Origin: a virus
Direction: 5' to 3' (one strand)
UHGV virus genome: UHGV-0179686
Length of the DNA stretch: 29,617 bases
Within the stretch, counting starts at the first letter, position 1; each line of letters opens with the position of its first letter. A program made the translations under genes and the position numbers. Positions 1-16,807 of the stretch are shown here, in pieces. The notes below the pieces were generated by a model. It had not been told where the DNA came from, did not search any database, and was given only the letters and a program-made list of their open reading frames with translations.

Positions 1-628
1 GGTTGAGCATGTACCGGTATGTGTGCAGCTGCATACTGTCGGCGGGTAGGCGTCCTGTTTTGAGGTCGAGGATGAAGGTTTCGCCGGTGTCGGTGTCGGT
101 GAAAACGCGGTCGATGTAGCCGACTATTTTTGTGTCATCGTCGAGGGTGGTTTCTACCGGGTATTCGATGCCTGGCTGGCCGTCTATGACTGCTGTGTGG
201 TATTGTGGATTGTTTGTGCGCCAGTGTTTCCACCGGTCGACGAAGGTTTGGCCGTATATCATCCACCAATTGTAGTCTTTTTTGTGTGGCCCGCCCGACT
301 CGCACATGTTTTTACATTGTCGCCCGGAGGGTTTAATCTCCATACCCTCTGATGTGGTGAGGGCGACTTGGGTGTCGAAAATGTTTTTGAAGGATGCGAG
401 TTTGTCTGGCAGTGCAGGGTATTCGGCGGGATTGTACAGGTGTAGGTCGTATTGTTCAGTGATATGGTGTATGGCGCTTCCGGCGATGGTGGCGTACCAG
501 GTGTGGTGTTGGGCGTGGTAGCCGTGGGATAGGCGCCATTTTTCTCCGCATTCGGCCCACTGTGACAGTGATGAGTAGGAGATGTGACCCGGATGGTCGA
601 TGGTGGACGGTTTTTGTGCTAGAGGCAT
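1..628 (-). CDS. Cas4/RecB-like PD-(D/E)XK exonuclease, N-terminal part (start codon at 626-628; gene runs off window start and appears to continue in-frame at 29298..29617)
   Basis: My own translation of the minus strand from ATG at 628 gives MPLAQKPSTIDHPGHISYSSLSQWAECGEKWRLSHGYHAQHHTWYATIAGSAIHHITEQYDLHLYNPAE with no stop down to position 1. N-terminal Cys in SQWAECGEKW fits the Fe-S Cas4/AddB nuclease family. TAATG overlap with upstream gene stop at 628-630. Confidence 0.6.
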   Translation of the reverse strand, partial: MPLAQKPSTIDHPGHISYSSLSQWAECGEKWRLSHGYHAQHHTWYATIAGSAIHHITEQYDLHLYNPAEYPALPDKLASFKNIFDTQVALTTSEGMEIKPSGRQCKNMCESGGPHKKDYNWWMIYGQTFVDRWKHWRTNNPQYHTAVIDGQPGIEYPVETTLDDDTKIVGYIDRVFTDTDTGETFILDLKTGRLPADSMQLHTYRYMLN

Positions 629-2860: not shown

Positions 2861-2923
2861 GAGGGTGTGCTCCTTTCGGTGGTGTATGGGTTGTTGTGGT
2901 TTCTAGAGTGTGTAGGTTGCAAC

Positions 2924-2962
2924 CGGGAGTCAAGGCTGCGCTCAAACCTAGTGAGCGTTTCA
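2924..2962 (-). promoter_or_regulatory. repeated promoter/operator-like element B (TTGACT plus CGCTCA-N7-TGAGCG inverted repeat) upstream of the first leftward gene
   Basis: gtcaaggctgcgctcaaacctagtgagcgtttcatg; near-identical to element A; located about 65 nt upstream of start codon 2860. Confidence 0.35.
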
Positions 2963-3489
2963 TGCTGGAGTGTTGGGTGTGACGGATGTCACTTAAGCAT
3001 TTACCGCCTCTCCCAGCGTCTCAAATCTTCTGGGGGTAGGATTATATAGGGTTGACCCTGCTGATCGATTCTAGGGGCCTTCTAGGGCGTCTCAGGGGTA
3101 TGTCTGGGTGATAGCAGGTTCGGTAGATGACCCGGCAGATCTACCTTGGCTTTCATCACAAAGGTCGAGGTGCCAGATCTGGGCATGGAATCTACACCCT
3201 CATACTGTGTGAGATGTATCACATCCTCCTGGCGTGGTGTGCCCCCTCAAGGCCACTCTGTCGATCTGGCGTAGAGGGTGTAGCCCAGAAATGCCGTTTA
3301 AAGCTTCAGGGGTACGCCGAGGAGCGCCTTACAGGGTGGAGGCTAGGTATTTATACCCCCAGCACATTCTGATCAATCCTAGACGCCCCCAGGAGACTGA
3401 TACACGATCCACCATCTCGGCATAGACCATCAACCCCTATCCCGCTTAGCTAAGCCTCAACTATGTGGACAGTGTGGGATACTGAGGGG

Positions 3490-3520
3490 GAAGAAGGACA
3501 CGGTAAAAGAAAGAGGGGGG
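3490..3520. repeat. left copy of 30-bp inverted repeat (purine-rich on plus strand: gaagaaggacacggtaaaagaaagagggggg)
   Basis: Reverse complement matches 4902-4931 over 25 contiguous nt (tctttcttttaccgtgtccttcttc) plus flanking C/G run. Confidence 0.7.
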
Positions 3521-3575
3521 AGCATCAGCCTTCAAGCCTTAAGGTCTTAGCGCTTAGCACCGATGGTCTTAGCAG

Positions 3576-3608
3576 TTAGCACCGAGCCCCTCAAGGGCTC
3601 GGCATCAG
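3576..3608. repeat. 33-bp direct-repeat element copy 1 containing perfect GC hairpin CCGAGCCC-CTCAA-GGGCTCGG followed by CATCAG
   Basis: ttagcaccgagcccctcaagggctcggcatcag, identical to 4085-4117. Confidence 0.7.
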
Positions 3609-4039
3609 CCCGAACAGGCACAGCCCTGAAAGGAGTACACGCCATCAGGGAAGGCTTGAGAGTACGAGGAGCCCTAGCGACGAGTACTCGAAAGCCTGAG
3701 GGAAGACCATCAGCACTGATGGGCCTAGCGTGTTCGGAAAGGACACAAGGGTACAGTGTGAGAGCTGTTCGGGAGTGAAACCTGTTCTGACTAGGGGTTT
3801 CAGTCTTAACCACCCTCAAAGGTTACAAGACTCTAAGAAAATTTAAGGAAAAGTTTAGGTTTAATTTTTGGACCTTTACTACCAAAAACACCCGTTTACA
3901 CTCCTCAAACCCGCCTATAGAGCCAAATCCACCAGTTTGACTCATCCCAGGTGGCATATGATAGGCTGGACAGGTAGCCAGCTGGACGCAAGGCCGAAAT
4001 CCGCTGACGCGGCTTTCACCCTTACATCCATCAGTCTAC

Positions 4040-4530
4040 CAAACACTTTAAAGCTTCAAGGCTTAGCGCTAAGGTGCTGATAGCTTAGCACCGAGCCCCT
4101 CAAGGGCTCGGCATCAGTCTTAAAGCTTTAAACACTTTAAGTAACTTTAAAACCTTAACAGCTTAGCACTTAAGGATCTAAGTTACTATAAAAGCTTTAA
4201 AGTCTTAAAGTACATATAAAACCTTAACAGTTAAACGTTAAAAGCTTTAAACCTTAACACCTAAGTTAAGTATAAAACCTTAAAGGCTTAGCACTTAAGG
4301 ATATAAACTTCACATCAGTGTTTAAGACTTTACAGCTTAAAATAACTATTAAGACTTCAAGGCTTATAAGCTTTAAACACTTAAAGTAACTATAAAACTT
4401 TAAAAACCTTAAGTACTTAAAGTTAACCATCAGTCTTAAACTTTAATATTATAACCTATAAGTCTTAAAGCTTATAGGTATAATAATATAATATAAGTAT
4501 TAAAGCTTATAAGTTATAAAAGTTTTAGAA
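4040..4530. repeat. AT-rich degenerate tandem-repeat region (about 120-125 bp period, words cttaa/agctt/ttaaag/tataa); a shorter AT-rich patch also at 3826-3890
   Basis: A 60-nt sample 4141-4200 has 17 G+C by count, against visibly GC-rich flanks. gcttagcacttaaggat recurs at 4161 and 4286; agctttaaacactt at 4124 and 4369; aaaccttaa at 4151/4211/4271. Confidence 0.6.
4085..4117. repeat. 33-bp direct-repeat element copy 2 (same GC hairpin plus CATCAG)
   Basis: Identical to 3576-3608; spacing 509 bp. Confidence 0.7.
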
Positions 4531-4540
4531 GAGTTAAAGG

Positions 4541-4597
4541 GTTAACTTCTTTACTTCTCTTCTCTCTTTGGTTCTTTCTCTCTTCTCTTCTTTTCTT
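4541..4597. repeat. polypyrimidine (C/T) tract about 57 nt on plus strand, followed by purine run ggggagaagaggaa
   Basis: ttaacttctttacttctcttctctctttggttctttctctcttctcttcttttcttc; strand-asymmetric, mirror-like; H-DNA/triplex-forming potential. Confidence 0.5.
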
Positions 4598-4901
4598 CAT
4601 CAGGGGAGAAGAGGAACCTTTAACGTCAACGCTGACAGACTTTTCGCCGTGTGTCTCGTGTGCTTCTGGTCGCAAGCTCCCATCGCACACTCCCCACACT
4701 CTTACACCCGTGTCCCTTTCAGGCTTAGCGTGTTCGGCTGAAGGCGTACGGCTTGTCACGCTCACACCCTTAACACCAGGTAAGACTTAAAGTGTATATT
4801 ATAAGTAGAAGACTTTAAAACCTTAAGGGTGTTCCTGCTGAGCCTGTGTCCTTTAACGCTAGGCGCTAGGCGCTAAGCTGTGAAACGCGAACACCCATAC
4901 A

Positions 4902-4931
4902 CCCCTTCTTTCTTTTACCGTGTCCTTCTTC
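4902..4931. repeat. right copy of 30-bp inverted repeat (ccccttctttcttttaccgtgtccttcttc)
   Basis: Reverse complement of 3490-3520; the two copies bracket the AT-rich repeat module (about 1.38 kb). Confidence 0.7.
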
Positions 4932-5151
4932 TTTTGACACCGCTGGGGGGCGATGTGATCTTTCTCACACCCATGGGGGTAGTGGAGAAAACAACCACCC
5001 CGGCACACACAGAACACCCCCTCAAACGAACAAAACAGCCCCTAGGATCGAACAGTAGGGCACCGGTAGGGTATTCCTACCCCAAGACGATTCTAGGCCG
5101 TTACAGGAGAAATGAGAGGCTCGCAGGGGTTATAGGTGATTGGGGGATGCG

Positions 5152-5454
5152 ATGACACACACCAACCGCACCGCATCCTCCGCCCATCGGCGCTGGCGGG
5201 CAAGGCTCATCACCCAAGCCCAACAACAAGGCCAAACCGAATGCCCACTCTGCGGAGCCCAGATAGCCTGGGGCACACACGATCTACCAACTAGCCCCGA
5301 AGCCGACCACATCACACCCGTCAGCAGGGGAGGACTCAACACCCTCGACAACGGGCAAATCATCTGCAGAACATGCAACAGAAGCAAAGGCAATCGCAGC
5401 GAACCAAACATCAAATTCCAACAACAAACCACAAAAACATTGATTCCATGGTGA
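5152..5454 (+). CDS. HNH endonuclease (about 100 aa), adjacent to cos and terminase genes
   Basis: CPLCGAQ...DHITPVSRGGLNTLDNGQIICRTCNRSKGN is an HNH motif with two Cys pairs. ATG at 5152 with GGGGGA 5 nt upstream; ORF-track TTG at 5140 is an alternative. Confidence 0.75.
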   Translation: MTHTNRTASSAHRRWRARLITQAQQQGQTECPLCGAQIAWGTHDLPTSPEADHITPVSRGGLNTLDNGQIICRTCNRSKGNRSEPNIKFQQQTTKTLIPW

Positions 5455-5505
5455 CAAACCCGCCAACCCCCACCGGGGACACCCCCTGCACAGGCGTGCA
5501 AAACC

Positions 5506-5516
5506 TCGTACGGCTT
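5506..5516. other. candidate cohesive-end (cos) core TCGTACGGCTT between the HNH gene and the small terminase gene
   Basis: Sequence seen at 5506-5516. I recall this 11-nt 3' overhang being reported for C. acnes phages; contains CGTACG palindrome; flanked by TGCAC-aggc-GTGCA palindrome at 5488-5501. Confidence 0.55.
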
Positions 5517-5580
5517 AGTGAAATACCTCCCTTTTGTGGTTTTGTCTGTTTGTCGACTTTTTGTGTTGGTGGTGAGTGTT

Positions 5581-5889
5581 GTGCAGCCTGAGCTTCCTGA
5601 TGGTCGTGAGTGGTGTGGGGAGACGCGTCGTTGGTGGCGTGTGTGGGGTGAGGATAGTCGTGCGCAGTACGTGTCTGATGAGGAGTGGCTGTTTCTCATG
5701 GATGCTGCGGTGATTCATGATTGTGTGTGGCGTGAGGGTCGCGCGGATTTGGTGGCTTCGCTTCGTGCTCATGTGAAGGCGTTTATGGGCATGTTGGATC
5801 GTTATTCGGTTGATGTGGCGTCTGGTGGCCGTGGTGGGGGTTCTGCGGTGGCGATGATTGACCGGTATAGGAAGCGTAAAGGGGCCTAA
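5581..5889 (+). CDS. terminase small subunit (putative; start uncertain, ORF-track frame opens at 5518)
   Basis: Position immediately upstream of and overlapping (TAATG at 5887-5891) the large terminase. GTG at 5581 preceded by GGTGGTGAG. The N-terminal 20 codons of the ORF-track version are G/T-rich and look non-coding. Confidence 0.45.
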   Translation: MQPELPDGREWCGETRRWWRVWGEDSRAQYVSDEEWLFLMDAAVIHDCVWREGRADLVASLRAHVKAFMGMLDRYSVDVASGGRGGGSAVAMIDRYRKRKGA

Positions 5890-7400
5890 TGTCGAGCGTT
5901 GTTGGTTCTCAGGTTCCTCGTCACCGTGTGGCTGCGGCGTATTCGGTGTCTGCTGGTGGTGATGCTGGGGAGTTGGGTCGTGCGTATGGGTTGACGCCTG
6001 ATCCGTGGCAGCAGCAGGTGTTGGATGATTGGCTGGCTGTCGGTGGTAATGGCAGGCTTGCTTCGGGTGTGTGTGGGGTGTTTGTGCCTCGCCAGAATGG
6101 CAAGAATGCTATTTTGGAGGTTGTGGAGTTGTTTAAGGCGACTATTCAGGGTCGCCGTATTTTGCATACGGCTCACGAGTTGAAGTCGGCTCGTAAGGCG
6201 TTTATGCGGTTGCGTTCGTTTTTTGAGAATGAGCGGCAGTTTCCTGACTTGTATCGTATGGTGAAGTCGATTCGTGCGACGAATGGCCAGGAGGCTATTG
6301 TGTTGCATCATCCGGATTGTGCCACGTTTGAGCGTAAGTGTGGCTGTCCGGGTTGGGGTTCGGTGGAGTTTGTGGCCCGTAGCCGGGGTTCTGCTCGCGG
6401 TTTTACGGTTGATGATTTGGTGTGTGATGAGGCTCAGGAGTTGTCGGATGAGCAGTTGGAGGCTTTGCTTCCTACGGTGAGCGCTGCCCCGTCTGGTGAT
6501 CCGCAGCAGATTTTCCTTGGCACGCCGCCTGGGCCGTTGGCTGACGGGTCTGTGGTGTTGCGTCTTCGTGGGCAGGCTTTGTCGGGTGGTAAAAGGTTTG
6601 CGTGGACGGAGTTTTCGATTCCTGATGAGTCTGATCCGGATGATGTGTCGCGGCAGTGGCGGAAGTTGGCGGGGGATACGAATCCGGCGTTGGGGCGTCG
6701 TCTGAATTTTGGGACAGTCTCGGATGAGCATGAGTCGATGTCTGCTGCGGGTTTTGCTCGGGAGCGGCTTGGCTGGTGGGATCGTGGCCAGTCTGCTGCG
6801 TCTGTGATTCCTGCGGATAAGTGGGCTCAGTCTGCTGTGGATGAGGCGAGTTTGGTTGGCGGGAAAGTGTTTGGTGTCTCGTTTTCTCGTTCTGGGGATC
6901 GGGTCGCGTTGGCTGGTGCTGGCCGGACTGATGCTGGGGTTCATGTTGAGGTTATTGATGGGCTGTCGGGAACGATTGTTGATGGTGTGGGCCGGTTGGC
7001 TGACTGGTTGGCGGTTCGTTGGGGTGATACTGACCGGATCATGGTTGCCGGGTCTGGTGCGGTGTTGTTGCAGAAGGCGTTGACGGATCGTGGTATTCCG
7101 GGCCGTGGCGTGATTGTTGCTGATACTGGGGTGTATGTGGAGGCTTGTCAAGCCTTCCTGGAAGGCGTAAGGTCTGGGAATGTTTCTCATCCTCGTGCTG
7201 ATTCTCGCCGTGACATGTTGGATATTGCTGTGAGGTCGGCGGTTCAGAAAAAGAAAGGCTCTGCGTGGGGTTGGGGTTCCTCGTTTAAGGATGGTTCTGA
7301 GGTTCCTTTGGAGGCTGTGTCGTTGGCGTTTTTGGGGGCGAAACGTGTTCGTCGTGGCCGTCGGGAGCGTAGTGGTAGGAAGCGGGTGTCTGTGGTATGA
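5889..7400 (+). CDS. terminase large subunit (503 aa)
   Basis: Size and position; ATPase P-loop-like VPRQNGKNA; 4-nt ATGA overlap with portal gene. Confidence 0.85.
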   Translation: MSSVVGSQVPRHRVAAAYSVSAGGDAGELGRAYGLTPDPWQQQVLDDWLAVGGNGRLASGVCGVFVPRQNGKNAILEVVELFKATIQGRRILHTAHELKSARKAFMRLRSFFENERQFPDLYRMVKSIRATNGQEAIVLHHPDCATFERKCGCPGWGSVEFVARSRGSARGFTVDDLVCDEAQELSDEQLEALLPTVSAAPSGDPQQIFLGTPPGPLADGSVVLRLRGQALSGGKRFAWTEFSIPDESDPDDVSRQWRKLAGDTNPALGRRLNFGTVSDEHESMSAAGFARERLGWWDRGQSAASVIPADKWAQSAVDEASLVGGKVFGVSFSRSGDRVALAGAGRTDAGVHVEVIDGLSGTIVDGVGRLADWLAVRWGDTDRIMVAGSGAVLLQKALTDRGIPGRGVIVADTGVYVEACQAFLEGVRSGNVSHPRADSRRDMLDIAVRSAVQKKKGSAWGWGSSFKDGSEVPLEAVSLAFLGAKRVRRGRRERSGRKRVSVV

Positions 7401-8722
7401 ACTCGGATGAGTTGGCTCTGATTGAGGGCATGTACGATCGTATCCAAAGGTTGTCTTCGTGGCATTGTCGTATTGAGGGCTACTATGAGGGCTCGAGCCG
7501 GGTGCGTGACCTTGGTGTGGCTATTCCTCCGGAGTTGCAGCGTGTGCAAACGGTGGTGTCGTGGCCTGGGATTGCGGTGGATGCTTTGGAGGAGCGTCTG
7601 GATTGGCTTGGCTGGACGAATGGTGACGGCTACGGTTTGGATGGCGTGTATGCTGCGAATCGGCTTGCTACGGCGTCGTGTGATGTGCATTTGGATGCGC
7701 TGATTTTTGGGTTGTCGTTTGTTGCGATCATTCCCCAGGATGATGGGTCGGTGTTGGTTCGTCCGCAGTCACCAAAGAATTGTACGGGCAAGTTTTCGGC
7801 TGACGGGTCTCGTTTGGATGCTGGCCTTGTGGTGCAGCAGACGTGTGATCCTGAGGTTGTTGAGGCGGAGTTGTTGCTTCCTGATGTGATTGTTCAGGTG
7901 GAGCGGCGGGGTTCGCGTGAGTGGGTTGAGACGGGCCGTATCGTGAATGGTCTTGGTGCGGTTCCGTTGGTGCCTGTTGTGAATCGTCGCCGTACGTCGA
8001 GGATTGATGGCCGTTCGGAGATTACGAGGTCTATTAGGGCTTACACGGATGAGGCTGTGCGCACACTGTTGGGGCAGTCTGTGAATCGTGATTTTTATGC
8101 GTATCCTCAGCGTTGGGTTACGGGTGTGAGCGCGGATGAGTTTTCGCAGCCTGGCTGGGTCCTGTCGATGGCTTCTGTGTGGGCTGTGGATAAGGATGAT
8201 GACGGTGACACTCCGAATGTGGGGTCGTTTCCTGTCAATTCGCCTACACCGTATTCGGATCAGATGAGACTGTTGGCGCAGTTGACTGCGGGTGAGGCGG
8301 CTGTTCCGGAACGCTATTTCGGGTTTATCACGTCTAACCCACCTAGTGGTGAGGCTTTGGCTGCCGAGGAATCTCGGCTTGTGAAGCGTGCTGAACGCAG
8401 GCAGACGTCGTTTGGTCAGGGCTGGCTGTCGGTTGGTTTCCTGGCTGCCAAGGCGCTTGATTCGAGTGTTGATGAGGCCGATTTTTTTGGTGATGTGGGT
8501 TTGCGTTGGCGTGATGCTTCGACGCCTACCCGGGCGGCTACGGCTGATGCTGTGACGAAGCTTGTTGGTGCCGGTATTTTGCCTGCTGATTCTCGTACGG
8601 TGTTGGAGATGTTGGGTTTGGATGATGTGCAGGTTGAGGCTGTGATGCGTCATCGTGCTGAGTCGTCGGATCCGTTGGCGGCACTGGCTGGGGCTATATC
8701 GCGTCAAACTAACGAGGTTTGA
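7397..8722 (+). CDS. portal protein (441 aa)
   Basis: Size and position directly after terminase; ATGA overlap at 7397-7400. Confidence 0.8.
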   Translation: MNSDELALIEGMYDRIQRLSSWHCRIEGYYEGSSRVRDLGVAIPPELQRVQTVVSWPGIAVDALEERLDWLGWTNGDGYGLDGVYAANRLATASCDVHLDALIFGLSFVAIIPQDDGSVLVRPQSPKNCTGKFSADGSRLDAGLVVQQTCDPEVVEAELLLPDVIVQVERRGSREWVETGRIVNGLGAVPLVPVVNRRRTSRIDGRSEITRSIRAYTDEAVRTLLGQSVNRDFYAYPQRWVTGVSADEFSQPGWVLSMASVWAVDKDDDGDTPNVGSFPVNSPTPYSDQMRLLAQLTAGEAAVPERYFGFITSNPPSGEALAAEESRLVKRAERRQTSFGQGWLSVGFLAAKALDSSVDEADFFGDVGLRWRDASTPTRAATADAVTKLVGAGILPADSRTVLEMLGLDDVQVEAVMRHRAESSDPLAALAGAISRQTNEV

Positions 8723-14041: not shown

Positions 14042-16807
14042 ATGTCTGGTGAGATTGCTTCCGCATATGTGTCGTTGTATACGAAGATGCCTGGCCTTAA
14101 AAGTGATGTTGGTAAACAGTTGTCGGGTGTGATGCCTGCTGAGGGTCAGCGTTCGGGTGGTCTGTTTGCTAAGGGCATGAAGTTGGCGCTTGGTGGTGCG
14201 GCGATGATGGGTGCCATCAATGTTGCTAAGAAGGGCCTCAAGTCTATCTATGATGTGACTATTGGTGGCGGTATAGCTAGGGCGATGGCTATTGATGAGG
14301 CTCAGGCTAAACTGACTGGTTTGGGTCATACGTCTTCTGACACGTCTTCGATTATGAATTCGGCTATTGAGGCTGTGACTGGTACGTCGTATGCGTTGGG
14401 TGATGCGGCTTCTACTGCGGCGGCGTTGTCTGCTTCGGGTGTGAAGTCTGGCGGGCAGATGACGGATGTGTTGAAGACTGTCGCCGATGTGTCTTATATT
14501 TCGGGTAAGTCGTTTCAGGATACGGGCGCTATTTTCACGTCTGTGATGGCCCGCGGTAAGTTGCAGGGCGATGACATGTTGCAGCTTACGATGGCGGGTG
14601 TTCCTGTCCTGTCTTTGCTTGCCAGGCAGACTGGTAAAACCTCGGCTGAGGTGTCGCAGATGGTGTCGAAGGGGCAGATTGATTTTGCCACGTTTGCGGC
14701 TGCGATGAAGCTTGGCATGGGTGGTGCTGCACAGGCGTCTGGTAAGACGTTTGAGGGCGCTATGAAGAATGTTAAGGGCGCCCTGGGTTATCTTGGTGCT
14801 ACGGCTATGGCGCCGTTTCTTAACGGGTTGCGGCAGATTTTTGTTGCGTTGAATCCGGTTATCAAGTCGGTGACGGATTCTGTGAAGCCGATGTTTGCTG
14901 CCGTAGATGCTGGTATTCAGCGTATGATGCCGTCTATTTTGGCGTGGATTAATCGTATGCCGGCTATGATCACTCGAATGAATGCACAGATGCGCGCCAA
15001 GGTGGAGCAGCTGAAGGGCATTTTTGCGAGAATGCATTTGCCTGTCCCTAAAGTGAATTTGGGTGCCATGTTTGCTGGCGGCACCGCAGTGTTCGGTATT
15101 GTTGCTGCGGGTGTTGGGAAGCTTGTTGCGGGGTTTGCCCCGTTGGCTGTGTCGTTGAAGAATCTGTTGCCGTCGTTTGGTGCTTTGAGGGGTGCCGCTG
15201 GCGGGCTTGGCGGCGTGTTTCGCGCCCTGGGGGGCCCTGTCGGTATTGTGATCGGCTTGTTTGCGGCAATGTTTGCTACGAACGCCCAGTTCCGTGCCGC
15301 TGTTATGCAGCTTGTTGGTGTGGTTGGTCAAGCCCTGGGGCAGATTATGGTCGCCTTGCAGCCACTGTTCGGTATTGTTGCTGGCGTGGTTGCCAGGTTG
15401 GCGCCAGTGTTCGGCCAGATTATCGGTATGGTTGCTGGTTTGGCTGCCCGGCTGGTGCCTGTTATTGGTATGCTTATTGCCCGGCTGGTTCCTGTTATCA
15501 CCCAGATTATTGGTATGGTAACCCAGGTTGCTGCCATGTTGTTGCCTATGCTGATGCCGGTTATTCAGGCTGTTGTTGCTGTGATACGGCAGGTTATTGG
15601 TGTGGTCATGCAGTTGATACCTGTTTTGATGCCGGTTGTGCAGCAGATTTTGGGTGCTGTCATGTCTGTTTTGCCGCCGATTGTTGGTTTGATACGGTCG
15701 CTGATACCGGTGATCATGTCGATTATGCGTGTGGTGGTGCAGGTTGTTGGCGCCGTGCTACAGGTGGTGGCCCGTATTATTCCGGTTATTATGCCGATTT
15801 ATGTTTCGGTGATTGGATTCATTGCCAAGATTTATGCTGCGGTTATCGTTTTTGAGGCTAAGGTTATTGGCGCTATTCTTCGTACTATTACGTGGATTGT
15901 GAATCATTCAGTGTCTGGCGTGAGGTCTATGGGTACGGCCATCCAGAATGGCTGGAATCATATCAAATCGTTTACGTCTGCGTTTATGAACGGTTTTAAG
16001 TCGATCATTTCTGGCGGTGTTGCCGCGGTTGTGGGGTTTTTTACGCGGCTTGGTTTGTCGGTTGCCTCCCATGTGAGGTCTGGTTTTAACGCGGCTCGTG
16101 GCGCTGTTTCGGCTGCGATGAACGGGATTCGGAGTGTTGTGTCTTCGGTGGCGTCTGCTGTTGGCGGGTTTTTCGGTTCGATGGCGTCTCGGGTTCGTAG
16201 TGGTGCTGTGCGCGGGTTTAATGGTGCCCGGAGTGCGGCATCTTCCGCTATGCATGCTATGGGGTCCGCTGTGTCTAGTGGTGTGCATGGTGTGCTGGGT
16301 TTTTTCCGGAATTTGCCTGGCAATATTAGGGGCGCCTTGGGTAGTATGGGCTCCCTGTTGGTGTCTGCTGGCCGTGATGTGGTGGCCGGTTTGGGTAACG
16401 GTATTAAGAATGCTTTGAGTGGCCTGCTGGATACGGTGCGTAATATGGGTTCTCAGGTTGCTAACGCTGCGAAGTCGGTGTTGGGTATTCATTCCCCGTC
16501 GAGGGTGTTTCGTGACGAGGTTGGCCGTCAGGTTGTTGCCGGTTTGGCTGAGGGTATTACTGGTAATGCGGGTTTGGCGTTGGATGCGATGTCTGGTGTG
16601 GCTGGTCGGCTGCCTGATGTGGTGGATGCCCGGTTTGGTGTGCGATCGTCTGTGGGCTCGTTTACCCCGTATGACCGGTATCGGCGTGCGAGTGAGAAGA
16701 GTGTTGTGGTGAATGTTAACGGGCCCACGTATGGTGATCCGAACGAGTTTGCGAAGCGGATTGAGCGTCAGCAGCGTGACGCGTTGAACGCTTTGGCTTA
16801 CGTGTGA
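14042..16807 (+). CDS. tape measure protein (921 aa)
   Basis: Size; periodic hydrophobic repeats (VIGMLIARLVPVITQIIGMV...); position after chaperones. Confidence 0.9.
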   Translation: MSGEIASAYVSLYTKMPGLKSDVGKQLSGVMPAEGQRSGGLFAKGMKLALGGAAMMGAINVAKKGLKSIYDVTIGGGIARAMAIDEAQAKLTGLGHTSSDTSSIMNSAIEAVTGTSYALGDAASTAAALSASGVKSGGQMTDVLKTVADVSYISGKSFQDTGAIFTSVMARGKLQGDDMLQLTMAGVPVLSLLARQTGKTSAEVSQMVSKGQIDFATFAAAMKLGMGGAAQASGKTFEGAMKNVKGALGYLGATAMAPFLNGLRQIFVALNPVIKSVTDSVKPMFAAVDAGIQRMMPSILAWINRMPAMITRMNAQMRAKVEQLKGIFARMHLPVPKVNLGAMFAGGTAVFGIVAAGVGKLVAGFAPLAVSLKNLLPSFGALRGAAGGLGGVFRALGGPVGIVIGLFAAMFATNAQFRAAVMQLVGVVGQALGQIMVALQPLFGIVAGVVARLAPVFGQIIGMVAGLAARLVPVIGMLIARLVPVITQIIGMVTQVAAMLLPMLMPVIQAVVAVIRQVIGVVMQLIPVLMPVVQQILGAVMSVLPPIVGLIRSLIPVIMSIMRVVVQVVGAVLQVVARIIPVIMPIYVSVIGFIAKIYAAVIVFEAKVIGAILRTITWIVNHSVSGVRSMGTAIQNGWNHIKSFTSAFMNGFKSIISGGVAAVVGFFTRLGLSVASHVRSGFNAARGAVSAAMNGIRSVVSSVASAVGGFFGSMASRVRSGAVRGFNGARSAASSAMHAMGSAVSSGVHGVLGFFRNLPGNIRGALGSMGSLLVSAGRDVVAGLGNGIKNALSGLLDTVRNMGSQVANAAKSVLGIHSPSRVFRDEVGRQVVAGLAEGITGNAGLALDAMSGVAGRLPDVVDARFGVRSSVGSFTPYDRYRRASEKSVVVNVNGPTYGDPNEFAKRIERQQRDALNALAYV
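15300..15560 (+). repeat. imperfect tandem nucleotide repeats inside tape measure gene
   Basis: Recurring units such as gcccggctggtgcctgttattggtatg / gcccggctggttcctgttatcacccagattattggtatgg. Confidence 0.4.

Follow-up and report, generated by a model that had tools for sequence, protein, structure and literature searches.

The window, by which we mean the whole stretch of 29,617 nucleotides that was analysed, carries a group of packaging genes on its + strand, with a cohesive-end site (cos) between the first two of them (Table 1). The first gene encodes an HNH endonuclease; it is the last gene of the canonical linear map and lies directly upstream of cos. Its product covers the Pfam HNH profile fully (1-47) and keeps the motif CPLC...DH...N...CRTCN intact, and a PDB sequence search with this protein returned only Cas9 and McrA-type HNH domains. 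The genes of the small terminase (TerS), the large terminase (TerL) and the portal protein follow on the other side of cos. TerL is recognised by its PHROG profile and by its homologue, which is annotated as terminase in reference records; it gave no Pfam terminase match at E-values up to 10 and no match in a PDB sequence search. An NCBIfam search yielded no useful family. The preliminary description had taken 5506-5516 for the 11-nt cohesive end of C. acnes phages and had placed cos with the HNH gene on one side and the small terminase gene on the other. Both statements hold: profile matches identify the genes at 5140-5454 and 5518-5889, and the published sequence is indeed present between them on the + strand.

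Table 1. Coordinates of cos, of the neighbouring genes and elements, and of the gene split by the ends of the window.
Feature	Position	Strand	Basis or remark
PD-(D/E)XK exonuclease gene, 5' (N-terminal coding) part	1..628	-	split by the window ends
HNH endonuclease gene, 104 aa	5140..5454	+	Pfam HNH E 3.1e-11; PHROG 338 E 3.9e-29
In-silico "circularised genome" amplicon, 732 bp	5297..6028	+	CaEnd-F 5297-5318, CaEnd-R 6007-6028, no mismatch
Inverted repeat TGCAC-N4-GTGCA	5487..5500	.	ends 5 nt upstream of the overhang
cos cohesive end TCGTACGGCTT, 11-nt 3' extension, sealed form	5506..5516	+	Marinelli 2012; P100_1 ends; contig ends of relatives
Left-end leader, G/T-rich, TTTGT repeats, almost invariant	5517..5580	+	usually counted as TerS N-terminus
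Small terminase (TerS) gene	5518..5889	+	Pfam Terminase_7 E 6.8e-08; PHROG 1897 E 6e-74
Large terminase (TerL) gene	5889..7400	+	PHROG 9 E 7.5e-66; homologue annotated terminase in reference records
Portal protein gene	7397..8722	+	Pfam SPP1_portal (PF05133) E 1.9e-16; PHROG 104 E 5e-153
PD-(D/E)XK exonuclease gene, 3' (C-terminal coding) part and stop codon	29298..29617	-	contigs cross 29617/1

The sequence 5'-TCGTACGGCTT has been described as the 11-base 3' extension of all C. acnes phages studied (Marinelli 2012). The record of phage P100_1 ends with ...AACCTCGTACGGCTT and starts with AGTGAAATACC, which is position 5517 of the window. In a longer view, this record ends with ...GCAAAACCTCGTACGGCTT and starts with AGTGAAATACCTCCC, and the window reads ...GCAAAACCTCGTACGGCTT followed directly by AGTGAAATACCTCCC across 5516/5517. 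Thus, the alignment to PA6-like genomes that had been proposed as a check of the end coordinates places the ends of the P100_1 record at 5516/5517; once joined, these ends are the same as window 5472-5561 save a few substitutions. From the length of the window, about 0.014 exact copies of the 11-mer are expected by chance (2 x 29,617 / 4^11). The real evidence that argues for a cos here is the position of the 11-mer, which is exactly homologous to the ends of complete genomes. The top-strand nick would fall between 5516 and 5517, and the bottom-strand nick between 5505 and 5506. The virion DNA would then be linear, with its left end at 5517 (AGTGAAATACC...), a right-end duplex reaching 5505 (...ACC) and TCGTACGGCTT protruding as an 11-nt 3' single strand.

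The 11-mer occurs a second time, unchanged, at 2702-2712, inside a minus-strand gene, and with one mismatch (GCGTACGGCTT) at 4744-4754. These copies could speak for a coincidental match at 5506, in which case the window would be a fragment or a misassembly. Where the 2702 copy would lie by homology, P100_1 and PA6 have TCGTATGGCTT and PHL095N00 has no copy within one mismatch; for the 4744 copy, no counterpart was seen in P100_1, PA6 or PHL095N00. Since neither is conserved in these three references, we consider them as chance copies and rejected them as secondary cos sites; P100_1 also carries an unrelated extra copy elsewhere. In contrast, the 5506 copy is found at the homologue of complete-genome ends and within a near-invariant block of 100 nt. 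Moreover, collinearity with the references is complete, with no segment missing or duplicated, and five independent contigs agree, so that the probability of a coincidence is practically negligible.

For the physical termini of relatives, two sets of 80 IMG/VR loci each were examined, one set anchored on the HNH gene and the other on that of the small terminase. Three right ends of metagenome contigs (L044, L083 and L093) read ...GCAAGACC, then an A and the Illumina adapter AGATCGGAAGAGC, and three further right-end contigs finish with ...ACCA. At the left ends, L137, L145 and L170 show the adapter ...CTCTTCCGATCT and then AGTGAAATACC, while L175 begins one base short. These blunt, A-tailed ends of relatives correspond to 5505 and 5517 of the window, and the 11-mer is absent from both. 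Its absence from both ends is explained by the removal of a 3' overhang during end-polishing, whereas a 5' overhang would be filled in and thus visible at both ends. Furthermore, since the CC is retained in the right duplex end, the overhang should be of 11 nt and not of 13 nt. An overhang of 13 nt (CCTCGTACGGCTT) has been reported for PA6, PAD20, PAS50 and PhiCaCom2. The adapter-abutting ends in public metagenomes, which belong to contigs of relatives and not to reads of this phage, support an 11-nt overhang over this 13-nt figure of recent papers. Untrimmed Illumina/Nextera adapters at contig ends (L044, L083, L093, L137, L145, L170, L175 and L070) are a minor contamination of IMG/VR that marks DNA termini.

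An alignment of 14 genomes shows that the region from about 5486 to 5597 is nearly invariant. Mean pairwise identity among 12 genomes reaches 97.6-99.6% over 5496-5595 versus mostly ~80-95% in the surrounding 3.3 kb, with further identity peaks, for instance in the HNH catalytic region and in TerL. Two elements of this conserved region deserve attention. The inverted repeat upstream of the cut has its TGCAC arm invariant in all 14 genomes and its GTGCA arm different in one of them (L034, ATGCA), with ACCC or AGGC as spacer; it could be considered only as a candidate recognition element. The left-end leader, on the other hand, could act as a terminase-binding (cosB-like) region, as its conservation and position suggest. 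Its G/T-rich block with TTTGT repeats covers 5532-5565, and the 3' end of the HNH gene holds an A/C-rich stretch as its mirror image; indeed, 5426-5436 and 5532-5542 form a perfect 11-nt inverted repeat. At the start of the TerS gene (5564-5648), a degenerate 20-nt direct repeat also occurs three times (TGTTGGTGGTGAGTGTTGTG and two relatives), with spacings of 34 and 31 nt; these copies could be either binding sites or simply part of a G/T-rich coding sequence. A search of Rfam found no RNA family within the window, and promoter and terminator scans of 2900-6000 gave sites no more numerous than in shuffled sequence.

The leader overlaps the annotated beginning of TerS. The annotated start at 5518 is located 1 nt past the cut, and the Terminase_7 match begins only at residue 20. 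On linear DNA there is no room for a ribosome-binding site before 5518, and the only sequence that could serve as one upstream of it is cos itself. The GTG at 5581, with GGTGGTGAG upstream, is a plausible true start of TerS, in which case 5517-5580 would be non-coding. Two open frames that cross cos were considered and rejected as genes. First, the frame running from the HNH stop through cos into TerS (same frame, 144 codons) is without an upstream start codon, and since the sequence is C-rich, its 21 extra stop-free codons are not significant. Second, a minus-strand ORF at 5130-5699 (189 aa) exists only in the joined form. It is antisense to HNH and TerS, and in 12 relatives the frame stays open for anything between 98 and 230 aa, which argues against a gene. 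This ORF is probably the "gp49" that was described as transcribable only after circularisation (Lood and Collin 2011).

The 2-kb probe around the site matched 232 phage records, all of them Propionibacterium or Cutibacterium acnes phages, and the hosts of these records suggest that C. acnes is also the host of the window phage. A 25-kb probe aligned over the whole length with PA6, P100_1, PHL095N00 and others at 91-93% identity. When the window is rotated to 5517, its positions 1-29617 correspond to P100_1 1-29612, and it is likewise collinear with PA6 and PHL095N00 (~92% identity); alignment breaks against the three references are confined to the known variable region near the right end. This end-to-end collinearity indicates that the window holds exactly one genome of a Pahexavirus, without any loss or duplication. 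It shares with Pahexavirus (PA6, P100_1, PHL095N00, PAVL33 and others) the gene order, the length class of 29.0-30.0 kb, the identical 11-nt cohesive end at the same place, an AT-rich non-coding region and a genome-wide excess of G on the forward strand. Still, it represents a distinct strain, as none of the records in the phage collection exceeds ~94% identity to it over the tested stretch.

The ends of the window split the PD-(D/E)XK exonuclease gene. The preliminary description had noted that this gene leaves the window at one end and re-enters at the other in frame and without a stop. Indeed, when it is rejoined from 29617 to 1, an unbroken minus-strand ORF of 315 aa is obtained (Pfam PDDEXK_1, E 7.4e-18). 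Its length equals that of gp36 in the references (948 bp) and, like gp36, it overlaps the gene upstream by one base; it is intact in sister contigs, and the 29617/1 join falls inside a gap-free alignment to all three references. Contigs of the window phage in public data were found by exact-protein look-up. Three of them, L019 (ENA ERZ28625414, 30,126 bp), L020 (NCBI GCA_032470755.1, contig JAWEJO010000021.1, 29,716 bp) and L023 (ENA ERZ27296194, 29,722 bp), match the doubled window at 100% identity and extend across 29617/1, and two Logan contigs (L021 and L022) cross cos. Both parts of JAWEJO010000021.1 that were retrieved match the window without a difference, and the first 99 bases of this contig are the same as its last 99; 29,716 - 99 gives 29,617. 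Assemblers typically leave such a terminal direct repeat when they follow a circular path, which very probably accounts for both the length and the arbitrary start of the window. The full-length collinearity and the contigs crossing the window ends thus back the earlier claim of one full circular genome. The window is almost certainly the complete genome of one Pahexavirus (a Cutibacterium acnes siphovirus), assembled as a circular path and opened arbitrarily within the gp36-like exonuclease gene. As a side observation, scaffold_353 of ERZ28625414 (L106, 30,126 bp, locus 15517-15976) shows a ~460-bp segment displaced at one end relative to the window; this appears to be a local misassembly, which would explain its extra ~509 bp.

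Internal cos sites are common in assemblies. The metagenome-derived contigs of relatives with the HNH gene number 35 in our tally: cos is crossed in 14 of them, 12 break off at ...ACC exactly, 8 fall 1-40 nt short of it and one is a fold-back artefact. The right end of one contig, L100, finishes in such a fold-back (inverted duplication). For the window phage itself, all five fetched contigs run through cos. The exact 24-nt sealed junction is present in 15 IMG/VR contigs, and 18 of the 232 GenBank records span the probe across cos in one piece, i.e. they were deposited permuted like the window. A scan for the sealed junction in one genome per species (GTDB) gave no match.

Three causes of the internal cos had been listed earlier, namely a replicative form, an episomal pseudolysogen and circularisation by the assembler. 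The last one stands, given the 99-bp repeat of JAWEJO010000021.1, whereas the first two are indistinguishable by sequence, and concatemer junctions, which were missing from the list, yield an identical sequence too. Replicative circles, concatemers, pseudolysogenic episomes and virion ends joined in vitro have each been described in C. acnes phages. All that an internal cos shows is that the ends were joined in some of the sequenced molecules, whatever the kind of molecule. Such joined forms are obligatory for cos phages, since the terminase cuts cos in concatemers, and infected cells are captured by whole-community DNA extraction. Furthermore, contigs of relatives mix run-through with breaks exactly at cos, as a mixture of virion and intracellular DNA would. 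These points argue for intermediates of lytic replication that were extracted along with the cells, be they monomer circles or head-to-tail concatemers; although the sequence would be the same for an episome or for joining in vitro, this is the reading that we tentatively prefer, with slightly less than even confidence.

It is also conceivable that the circle arose only in vitro or in silico, if library preparation or PCR linked or bridged the annealed virion ends and the path was then closed by the assembler. Indeed, the KIT08 paper shows a junction PCR band with phage DNA as template, and the 99-bp terminal repeat is a purely computational signature. However, end-polishing strips 3' overhangs, as seen at the adapter-abutting contig ends, and a blunt junction would lack the 11-mer while the junction of the window has exactly one copy of it; in addition, purified phage DNA served as the negative control of the junction PCR in the PhiCaCom2 study. 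An artificial origin of the circle therefore seems somewhat unlikely.

A pseudolysogenic, covalently closed circular episome in C. acnes cells of the sampled community is, in our estimate, clearly unlikely as the source of the joined cos, even though several observations are compatible with it. The cohesive extensions permit both circles and concatemers, and pseudolysogeny was proposed for the phage group (Lood and Collin 2011). Later work showed the circular form in phage-resistant C. acnes colonies or pseudolysogens by an end-spanning PCR that uses the primers of Liu 2015. The same junction primers match the window exactly (Table 1); the published junction product, with primers given, is of 739 bp (PMC13022010), and a band of ~735 bp is reported (PMC11480721). 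Moreover, an identical contig is present in GCA_032470755.1, which could be a bacterial genome or a bin carrying the phage. On the other hand, lytic replication intermediates give an indistinguishable sequence, and run-through is commonplace among relatives, as seen from the 14/35 contigs above. Junction-spanning reads are also present in phage DNA preparations (Marinelli 2012). Since junction reads and PCR products are thus obtained from virion DNA preparations as well, an internal cos is no evidence of an episome, and assemblies with an internal cos should not be taken as evidence of pseudolysogeny. The fact that every assembly of the window phage, from several samples, runs through cos could suggest that it exists in the community mainly as a circular episome (natural pseudolysogeny) and not as virions. 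We regard this broader proposal as more doubtful still; if true, it would provide metagenomic evidence for a carrier state in situ.

The following scheme could be proposed. As the literature shows for this phage group, the complementary ends of the injected DNA anneal and are sealed into a circle, which can replicate, concatemerise or persist as an unstable episome (pseudolysogeny). Through end joining, the HNH gene would become the immediate upstream neighbour, on the same strand, of the terminase and structural operon, so that a single packaging block would exist only in the joined form. During packaging, judging from the gene order and from HK97, phiSLT and Skunavirus, the small terminase would bind the conserved G/T-rich block to the right of the cut. 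TerL and the neighbouring HNH endonuclease would then make two staggered nicks, 11 nt apart. The roles suggested here for HNH, the leader and the TGCAC/GTGCA repeat are candidate roles, in the window phage as in every Pahexavirus. HNH proteins have been proposed to aid cos cleavage together with TerL (PMC3592412), and PMC12967558 makes the same proposal, citing Kala 2014 and Quiles-Puchalt 2014.

The layout of this region resembles that of HK97, phiSLT/phi12, GVE2 and Skunavirus sk1, where a small HNH gene is also the last one before cos and TerS, TerL and portal come first after it. HK97-type systems also have 3' overhangs of ~10 nt, like the 11-nt 3' overhang of the window phage; in HK97 itself, the overhang is of 10 nt. 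The HNH-assisted set, in whose sequence families a dependence on HNH was demonstrated, reportedly combines a Terminase_1-family large terminase with an HK97-family portal, whereas the TerL of the window is without a Pfam terminase family and its portal is of the SPP1 type and not of the HK97 type. Because of these differences in the TerL and portal families, we do not file the window phage as a member of this set. It nevertheless has an HK97-type layout and probably works alike; in the division proposed for HK97-type systems, one nick is made by HNH and the other by TerL.

A more distant likeness is seen with phage lambda, which also has fixed cohesive ends that are sealed after injection and terminase genes beside cos at the left end. 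As in the window, its right-end genes come to lie upstream of the terminase genes on the same strand only when the ends are joined. The overhang of lambda is 5' and of 12 nt; this phage packages without an HNH protein and possesses defined cosQ, cosN and cosB sites with IHF. In the window, by contrast, the overhang is 3' and of 11 nt, and the putative flanking elements are suggested by conservation. Mycobacteriophages such as TM4 and D29 also infect actinobacterial hosts and, like the window phage, have short 3' cohesive ends with HNH far right and terminase left. The PA6 annotation describes HNH, terminase and portal as similar to TM4 gp92, gp4 and gp5, respectively. The overhang sequence and the genome size differ, however, and the likeness is at protein level only, as taken from this annotation.

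The sticky-end biology of C. acnes phages and the internal cos as a result of assembly are already known and routine. For annotation hygiene, the window should be rotated to 5517 (AGTGAAATACC) and labelled as a complete cos-type Pahexavirus genome, which has little importance beyond. The 5517-5580 block provides a ready candidate for the terminase-binding site of therapeutic-candidate phages.

Regarding composition, the + strand of the window is strongly enriched in G and T, with 10,179 G vs 5,837 C and 8,782 T vs 4,819 A, whether the genes of an arm point rightward or leftward. Only from ~3871 to cos does the skew change sign, with one switch located exactly at the cos junction (~5516). The genome-wide skew has already been reported and ascribed to replication (Marinelli 2012). 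The GC skew switch at cos, which we had considered as an unusual feature, was not retained as such, since it is described in the same study. Finally, the gene-poor region of ~3050-4880 contains at 4100-4600 an AT-rich island whose GC content falls to 0.20-0.33. It carries dense degenerate direct repeats built on CTTAAAG/AAGCTT motifs, next to a CT-rich run at 4545-4600, and is the counterpart of what Marinelli 2012 described as a large non-coding region with a putative origin of replication.
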